A stretch of DNA of 49,179 nt from Candidatus Microgenomates bacterium (GTDB lineage Bacteria > Patescibacteriota > Microgenomatia > UBA8517), in assembly GCA_049523135.1 (NCBI GenBank), contig JBEKNE010000001.1, positions 717,234 through 766,412 on the forward strand. Direction: 5' to 3'. The notes beneath the pieces are model-generated. The model had not been told where the DNA came from. It did not search any database and worked only from the letters and a program-made list of their open reading frames with translations. A program made the translations under genes and the position numbers. Shown here piece after piece: positions 48,677 through 49,179 of this stretch (its first letter is position 1; each line of letters opens with the position of its first letter).

Positions 48677-48728
48677 ACTGTCCCCAGCTCTCCTCAAGAT
48701 TCCAACGCTTCCACAGGATAGAGTCCGA

Positions 48729-49060
48729 TATTATTGTTAACTCATAATCGCTTATGAGATCCGACTATATCTTAACCGTCAAAATTATTTAACGGTTTCT
48801 GACATATAGTCTGTGAGGATTTCCTTCGATTCTTTTTCAAATCGCTCAGGATCTTTCCTGCTGATTGACCGCACTTGATGCTTTGTCACTCTTACGAGTA
48901 GCACAAGATTCACCGGTGTTTCCAGCATTTAGTCAGATTTATTACCAACTGGAGTTGGTATCTTATAACTAACAGAGAATTACCTTCATTTAAATATAAA
49001 TGAATTCAAAACGTGTATAAGAACGACAGCTCGAATGAACTACATATATCTTATAGTTTT
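48729..49060 (-). mobile_element. ORF-less group I intron after U2604 (E. coli numbering)
   Basis: P1 GACAGU/GCUGUC with U:G, R CACAGACTA (48815-48807), S AAGATATAGTCGG (48773-48761), P9 with GCGA loop; 332 nt. Confidence 0.9.
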
Positions 49061-49179
49061 ACTGTCTCACGACGTTCTGAACCCAGCTCGCGTATCACTT
49101 TAACGGGCGAACAGACCGACCCTTGGCACCTTCTTCAGCGCCAGGATGTGATGAGCCGACATCGAGGTAGCGAACCGCG

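Follow-up and report, generated by a model that had tools for sequence, protein, structure and literature searches.

The window, by which we mean the whole stretch of 49,179 nucleotides analysed here from Candidatus Microgenomates bacterium, ends in the 3' part of a bacterial 23S rRNA gene. This gene takes up the last 1.4 kb on the minus strand and is followed by a 5S gene (47699-47583, minus strand); all rRNA and intron features given below lie on the same strand. When thresholds are relaxed, the alignment to the Rfam 23S model extends from 49179 to 47773 and is interrupted by two insertions, one of about 347 nt in helix 93 and one of about 695 nt in the sarcin-ricin loop. Past the first insertion the alignment restarts at uCGGACUC. 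This insertion is a group I intron of 332 nt (48729-49060), as the sequence-only reading had already proposed: it matches RF00028 over the full model (1-253, core P3-P9) at 92.1 bits, where the gathering score is 50 (E = 1.9e-22). Both the 23S model alignment and a comparison with 54 genome and 25 metagenome loci place it between U2604 and U2605 in helix 93 (site L2604). No open reading frame was found in the sequence of this intron, which hence has no endonuclease gene.

Downstream of the intron lies a middle exon of 52 nt (48677-48728, U2605-U2656), delimited by the sequence, the 23S model and contigs of sequencing runs. Next come another group I intron (47992-48676, 685 nt), inserted after U2656 in the sarcin-ricin loop, with a terminal G and an Rfam score of only 28 bits (E = 9e-5), and then the 3' terminal exon of the 23S rRNA (47773-47991, from the Rfam 23S alignment). 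The second intron contains a LAGLIDADG gene of 164 aa (48603-48109, Pfam LAGLIDADG_1 match). Positions 2604 and 2657 are both named by Tsurumaki et al. 2024 (PMC11270868) among the insertion sites in CPR 23S genes that carry LAGLIDADG_1 genes. The window sequence occurs in four peat-metagenome runs (X1, X2, X3 and X4), and here the second intron is variably present. A form without it, in which 47990 is joined to 48676, is found in DNA as well as RNA contigs; in X1 the depth is 14.9 without against 23.2 with the intron. Among related loci it is absent from L124 and L141 and present in L122.

A few further features of the window may be mentioned here. A join that skips 206 nt, from 47673 within the 5S gene to 47880 close to the 3' end of the 23S gene, was seen at a depth of 10.8 in X3 and 7.0 in X2; it may reflect a true variant, or else an artefact of the assembly graph running through conserved words. 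On the plus strand there are three consecutive giant open reading frames (13705-29046) of 2,410, 1,377 and 1,342 aa. A Rha78A-like Ig domain lies close to the C-terminus of the latter two, and the 2,410-aa frame has no Pfam match. Housekeeping genes often score below the NCBIfam cut-offs.

The borders of the L2604 intron can be read from the rRNA itself. The 5' exon ends in ...GUGAGACAGU at 49061, which corresponds to U2604 of E. coli; A2602 is the bulged A found two bases before it. The first intron base is A49060. The 3' exon restarts with UCGGACUCUAUCC at 48728, and therefore the last intron base is A48729. Since the two borders differ in their bases, GACAGUUCGG is restored by no alternative choice of splice sites; the predicted joined product is GACAGU followed by UCGGACUC. 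The helices around the splice sites are regular. In P1 the 5' exon strand GACAGU (49066-49061), whose last base U2604 borders the 5' splice site, pairs with GCUGUC (49030-49025), the U49061-G49030 wobble included, and the earlier placement of the 5' site after U2604 on the basis of P1 is thereby upheld. The same guide strand continues into P10: the internal guide sequence UUCGA-GCUGUC (49025-49035, from sequence and fold) supplies UUCGA (49035-49031), which pairs with exon UCGGA (48728-48724). P10 thus comprises 5 bp counted from exon base +1 and adjoins P1 with zero gap.

The catalytic core is equally regular. The 5' strand of P7, CAGACUAUA (48805-48813), is the same in the closest G-ended relatives and holds G48811 of the guanosine-binding pair next to the bulged A48812; its partner C48763 lies in the 3' strand UAUAGUCG (48762-48769, from sequence and fold). 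This G-C pair is unchanged, in agreement with what had been claimed for P7. Next come the P7-P9 segment GAUC (48758-48761), the P9 hairpin UCAUAA-GCGA-UUAUGA (48742-48757) and the 3' tail GUUAACAAUAAU-A (48729-48741), whose last base A48729 takes the terminal (omega) position according to homology with the family tail and five assemblies. One further pairing, between UGUUAG (48974-48969) and the tail UUAACA, was suggested by the minimum-energy fold and rejected, as the main family branch keeps UAACA without this partner; the G-to-A change seen in L124 is compatible with this long-range pairing.

The terminal guanosine is among the most conserved bases of group I introns and has a direct part in the second splicing step. 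Of the features of RF00028 introns, it is this near-universal last base G that is absent from the window intron, where the base is A48729. The missing terminal G does not exclude the intron from group I; documented natural exceptions exist.

To place the terminal base in a wider context we compared introns at the same site. The species-representative scan (one genome per bacterial or archaeal species) looked for ACGTCGTGAGACAGT followed by a non-T base and gave at least 120 loci. L2604 introns are listed in Actinomycetota, Omnitrophota, CPR phyla, Elusimicrobiota and bins labelled Gammaproteobacteria. All 54 listed introns with a GCUGUC guide and a recognisable 3' exon end in UAACA-N4-5-U-G directly before UCGG. 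L019 and L047 seemed to deviate, but their supposed exons lie more than 2.4 kb downstream and are spurious matches. Metagenomes were scanned as well, with the P7 3' strand plus the exon as anchor, and yielded 25 loci, 23 of them G-ended; the A-ended ones are L125, which is the window's own sequence, and L124. Inspection of homologous introns, which the sequence-only reading had proposed as a check, thus returns a G at the homologous position in 54 of 54 listed genome loci and 23 of 25 metagenome loci. Among the roughly 75 introns listed at the site only the window's sequence and its diverged sister L124 end in A, whereas L141, L122 and about 70 others end in G.

The window intron belongs to this widespread family. 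It has the guide GCUGUC, the P7 sequence and the P9 hairpin with GCGA loop in common with the G-ended L2604 introns, and its tail aligns base for base with the family tail, (G)UAACA-N4-5-U plus the terminal base, as well as with the tails of its closest G-ended sisters L141 (GUUAACUAUUAUG) and L122 (GUUAACAAUGAUG). The alignment also sets the register of P9.0. In 59 family members the P7-P9 segment reads G-A-N-C. Its A faces the U at position -1, which is a U in 59 of 59, and its N forms a Watson-Crick pair with base -2 in 55 of 59 (A:U 20, G:C 16, U:A 16 and C:G 3, with 4 mismatches). The window follows this register with A48760-U48730 and U48759-A48731, after which comes A48729. The base at 48729 is at the terminal position because P9.0 covaries in the family register; it is the homologue of the family's terminal G, and P9.0, P10 and helix 93 agree on the site. 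The proposal that the 3' exon starts at 48728 and the intron ends in A, originally drawn from P10 and helix 93, is hereby strengthened by a covarying helix.

Some other observations were made in the same comparison. The tail motif (G)UAACA is conserved across many phyla among the listed loci, and a similar motif, GU(G/A)ACAA, is present in the P5 extension of L2604 introns. In Elusimicrobiota the 23S rRNA of several genomes (L002, L007, L014, L026 and others) reads GACAGUACGG, with an A at 2605 and without an intron, and the Elusimicrobiota L2604 introns L072, L113 and L115 are G-ended before ACGG. The 23S 3' region of L107, an uncultured genome bin labelled Gammaproteobacteria, is only 75-91% identical to that of the window.

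Given the rarity of the state, an obvious concern would be that A48729 is a sequencing or assembly error, or else a rare dead allele. Its probability is close to nil. Confirmation of the base in reads had been proposed earlier, and the contigs of the four public runs show zero variants at 48729. Furthermore, the exact junction, GAGTTAACAATAATA followed directly by TCGGACTC, is present in four further assemblies, of which L125, L146 and L147 carry the window sequence and L124 represents a diverged relative. The terminal A of the window intron is genuine.

The depth of the allele matches that of the adjacent single-copy chromosome in all four runs: 9.7 for the intron and 11.7 for the chromosome in X3, 19.9 and 19-22 in X1, 6.7 and 6-9 in X2, and 4.0 and about 5 in X4. 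In X3 a single unbranched contig of 1,209 nt (47882-49090) spans the 3' exon, both introns and 30 nt of the 5' exon, and here the A-ended allele is the sole 23S allele, with one copy per chromosome. In three runs the intron lies on an assembly-graph segment of 392 nt (48699-49090) that breaks 30 bases outside each intron border. X1 and X2 differ in that the middle exon has about twice the depth of the intron. The surplus stems from a second strain that has an identical middle exon (48699-48728) and a different, G-ended L2604 intron (AACUAUUAUG), which starts with UGACCAU, has 339 nt of unrelated interior, is placed by positions 51-87 and 401-440 of L141 and reaches a depth of 15.6 in X1 and 6.5 in X2. 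A-ended and G-ended alleles thus occur together in one sample. An intron-less DNA allele of the middle exon was not seen in the run contigs.

The diverged relative L124 is informative on the age of the terminal A. It comes from a different JGI metagenome assembly and has the same A-ended tail in a sister intron of 789 nt, which contains an intact LAGLIDADG_1 gene of 151 aa in P6. The 3' exon of its host is 92% identical to that of the window over 280 nt. Between the two introns several helices have changed on both strands. P9 goes from UCAUAA/UUAUGA in the window to UCAUGG/CCAUGA in L124 (two A-U to G-C changes), one A-U pair of the hairpin 49004-48985 is a G-C pair in L124, and the hairpin in the P1 loop also shows pair-preserving changes; L141 and L122 have further different paired sequences in P9. 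As these paired changes preserve the helices, the ribozyme fold has been under selection since the window and L124 split. Likewise, as two diverged introns have the same A-ended tail, the G-to-A change is older than their split, and the A state persists in two diverged lineages.

P6 of the window (48817-48858, minus strand; AUCCUGAGCGAUUUGAAAAAGAAUCGAAGGAAAU) resembles the P8 hairpin of L124 and L141, and P8 of the window (48796-48775) is unrelated to the P8 of these two. The resemblance hints that segments were swapped, and the swap may be connected with loss of the endonuclease reading frame that L124 has in P6.

Next to the DNA we considered RNA evidence for the splice junction. The window's exact exons were not found in the metatranscriptome contigs of runs chosen by the intron region and the 3' exon; the RNA runs chosen with the window sequence contain only relatives, with 1-4 mismatches. 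In contigs of the close relatives (1-2 mismatches) 48728 is joined directly to ACTGTCTCAC(GACG), which equals 49061 onward. Further RNA runs were chosen with the 3' exon of L124. One of these, the soil metatranscriptome X26, contains a contig of 174 nt at a depth of 123 with zero mismatches to L124 913-1069 (157 nt), in which the L124-identical exon is directly preceded by GAACGTCGTGAGACAGT, that is, GACAGU is joined to UCGG. X40 shows the same junction and is identical to L124 over 65 nt. Intron depth is zero in both X26 and X40. Hence rRNA indistinguishable from that of the A-ended L124 host is joined at the predicted site, which suggests correct-site splicing of the A-ended intron. The cells behind X26 and X40 could also be intron-less strains with exons identical to those of L124.

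Another RNA run, X25, holds a contig of 157 nt (depth 5.6) that covers P7-P9 of the window intron (48740-48773) with 1 mismatch in 34. Its P8 and a 98-nt 3' extension differ from those of the window, and it is a further related intron present in RNA.

The joined RNAs also bear on a competing 3' splice site. According to the sequence-only reading, GAU after P7 (48761-48759) pairs with AUC (48729-48727) ahead of G48726 and thus forms a textbook P9.0 with a terminal G, a decoy whose use would remove U2605-G2607 from the rRNA. Such a pairing can indeed be drawn on paper, but it is one base off the family register that covaries in 55 of 59 relatives, and P10 is unable to form at this site. Moreover, G48726 is G2607 of the exon, a base found in nearly all bacteria, and it lies three bases into the exon in every listed relative, all G-ended ones included. 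Its use would destroy helix 93 through the removal of three bases. In each of the eight RNA runs with coverage of the site, GACAGU joined to UCGG is the only junction, and the decoy junction is absent from the RNA contigs of all runs examined. We therefore regard GAU/AUC before G48726 as an on-paper coincidence, which means that this part of the earlier reading is given up; use of G48726 as the terminal G is exceedingly improbable.

A more general alternative is that the intron cannot complete splicing at all, in which case it would be kept in the mature 23S rRNA, as reported for Simkania L1931, or be cleaved only, leaving the rRNA in two pieces. Everett is said to have described an unspliced 23S intron in Chlamydiales in 1999, engineered terminal-A mutants are poor at exon joining, and no contig in the RNA runs examined is identical to the window's own exons. 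Nonetheless, we consider this outcome very unlikely. Helix 93 is interrupted by the insertion next to A2602 of the peptidyl-transferase centre. As X3 holds the A-ended 23S allele alone, with one copy per chromosome, an unspliced insertion in the only 23S gene should be lethal. P1, P10, P9.0, P7 and P9 are all kept, with paired substitutions between the window and L124, and the RNA with L124-identical exons is joined in libraries in which the intron depth is zero.

Taken together, the intron is probably a working self-splicing L2604 group I intron in which the terminal G has mutated to A. Self-splicing of the A-ended intron itself, and its rate, are inferred here. The first step would be ordinary: P1 would present U2604 in its pair with G49030, and free guanosine would be bound by the G-C pocket of P7, which is unchanged. 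In the second step the exons would be joined between A48729 and U48728, a site presumably chosen mainly by the flanking helices, namely a P9.0 of 2 bp and a P10 of 5 bp stacked on P1. Exon joining is expected to be accurate and probably slower than in the G-ended sisters, because a terminal A would fit poorly in the unchanged G-C pocket; the slowed splicing proposed by the sequence-only reading is thus plausible by analogy. In the Tetrahymena intron, mutants engineered to end in A instead of G join exons very poorly or turn to cryptic sites, unless the binding pair is made A-U as well. A compensating change of the guanosine pocket was considered for the window and rejected, as P7 is identical in A-ended and G-ended sisters. 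An unusually strong P10 does not qualify either: the G-ended L122 has the same geometry with 7 bp. Comparison of P7 and P10 with the G-ended sisters thus revealed no feature that offsets the loss of the G.

It is conceivable, though unlikely, that splicing of the A-ended introns needs a protein helper, either a LAGLIDADG maturase from the downstream intron or from the reading frame of L124, or a host RNA chaperone. Such a helper would offset weak docking of the terminal A, and so this explanation overlaps with that of a working A-ended intron rather than excluding it. A LAGLIDADG gene is indeed near each A-ended lineage (in the second intron of the window and inside the A-ended intron of L124), and some homing endonucleases have established maturase activity (review PMC10964413). 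However, the two genes are in different introns, L124 has no second intron and the window's A-ended intron has no reading frame. In addition, LAGLIDADG genes are equally common in G-ended sister introns.

We think it unlikely that the terminal A is a selected trait instead of a tolerated defect. If it were selected, the intron would be freed of the side reactions that require a terminal G, namely 3' splice-site hydrolysis and circularisation at full length, neither of which joins the exons, and this loss could protect an organism with an apparently single 23S gene. Exon joining would then be achieved by P9.0 and the contiguous P1-P10 stack alone. Were this true, the terminal G would have been lost repeatedly, as a 'domestication' step taken independently in Coxiella, in hexacoral mitochondria and in the peat lineage.

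Natural exceptions of this kind show how far the splice-site helices can replace the contact made by the terminal G. The L2604 site is suited for such work as it offers natural controls: G-ended sisters at the same site, one of them with an identical middle exon in X1 and X2, and a second A-ended copy (L124) with an intact homing endonuclease gene. These make a side-by-side test of splice-site choice and rate straightforward. The current picture of group I intron function is unchanged by our results.

Compared with known systems, the window intron resembles the Tetrahymena G-to-A mutants in combining a terminal A with an unchanged G-C pair in P7. Unlike these laboratory mutants, its A state has persisted through divergence of the hosts with the G-C pair unchanged. 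A natural parallel is found in Coxiella burnetii, where Cbu.L1917, as a title cited in PMC11270868 has it, is a 23S group I intron without the canonical terminal G; it had been put forward as a precedent by the sequence-only reading, and it serves well as such. The Coxiella 23S introns are reported as spliced (PMC4990558). Both Cbu.L1917 and the window intron are thus group I introns of a bacterial 23S rRNA gene with a last base other than G, and both are upstream members of a pair of introns separated by a short exon: 34 nt in Coxiella, where the pair is described as IB2 and IA3 (PMC10136302), and 52 nt in the window. The downstream partner is, in either gene, the other group I intron. The tandem arrangement is not required, given that the A-ended L124 occurs without a second intron. 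Coxiella differs in the site (L1917 against L2604), in the intron family and in the host.

A second class of natural exceptions, absent from the earlier reading, is formed by the hexacoral ND5-717 introns, which have no terminal G. As reported in PMC6545197, their exons are perfectly joined in vivo with more than 70% of the precursors left unspliced, and they are therefore a precedent for accurate but inefficient splicing. The ND5-717 introns lie in a protein-coding gene of mitochondria, are of giant size and pass on by strictly vertical inheritance, and back-splicing removes some of them. The window intron, in contrast, has a bacterial host, lies in an rRNA gene, measures 332 nt and has a sister with an intact homing endonuclease gene. 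Summarizing, the terminal A is a rare but already documented kind of exception, and with the window the few known cases gain an independent bacterial lineage.
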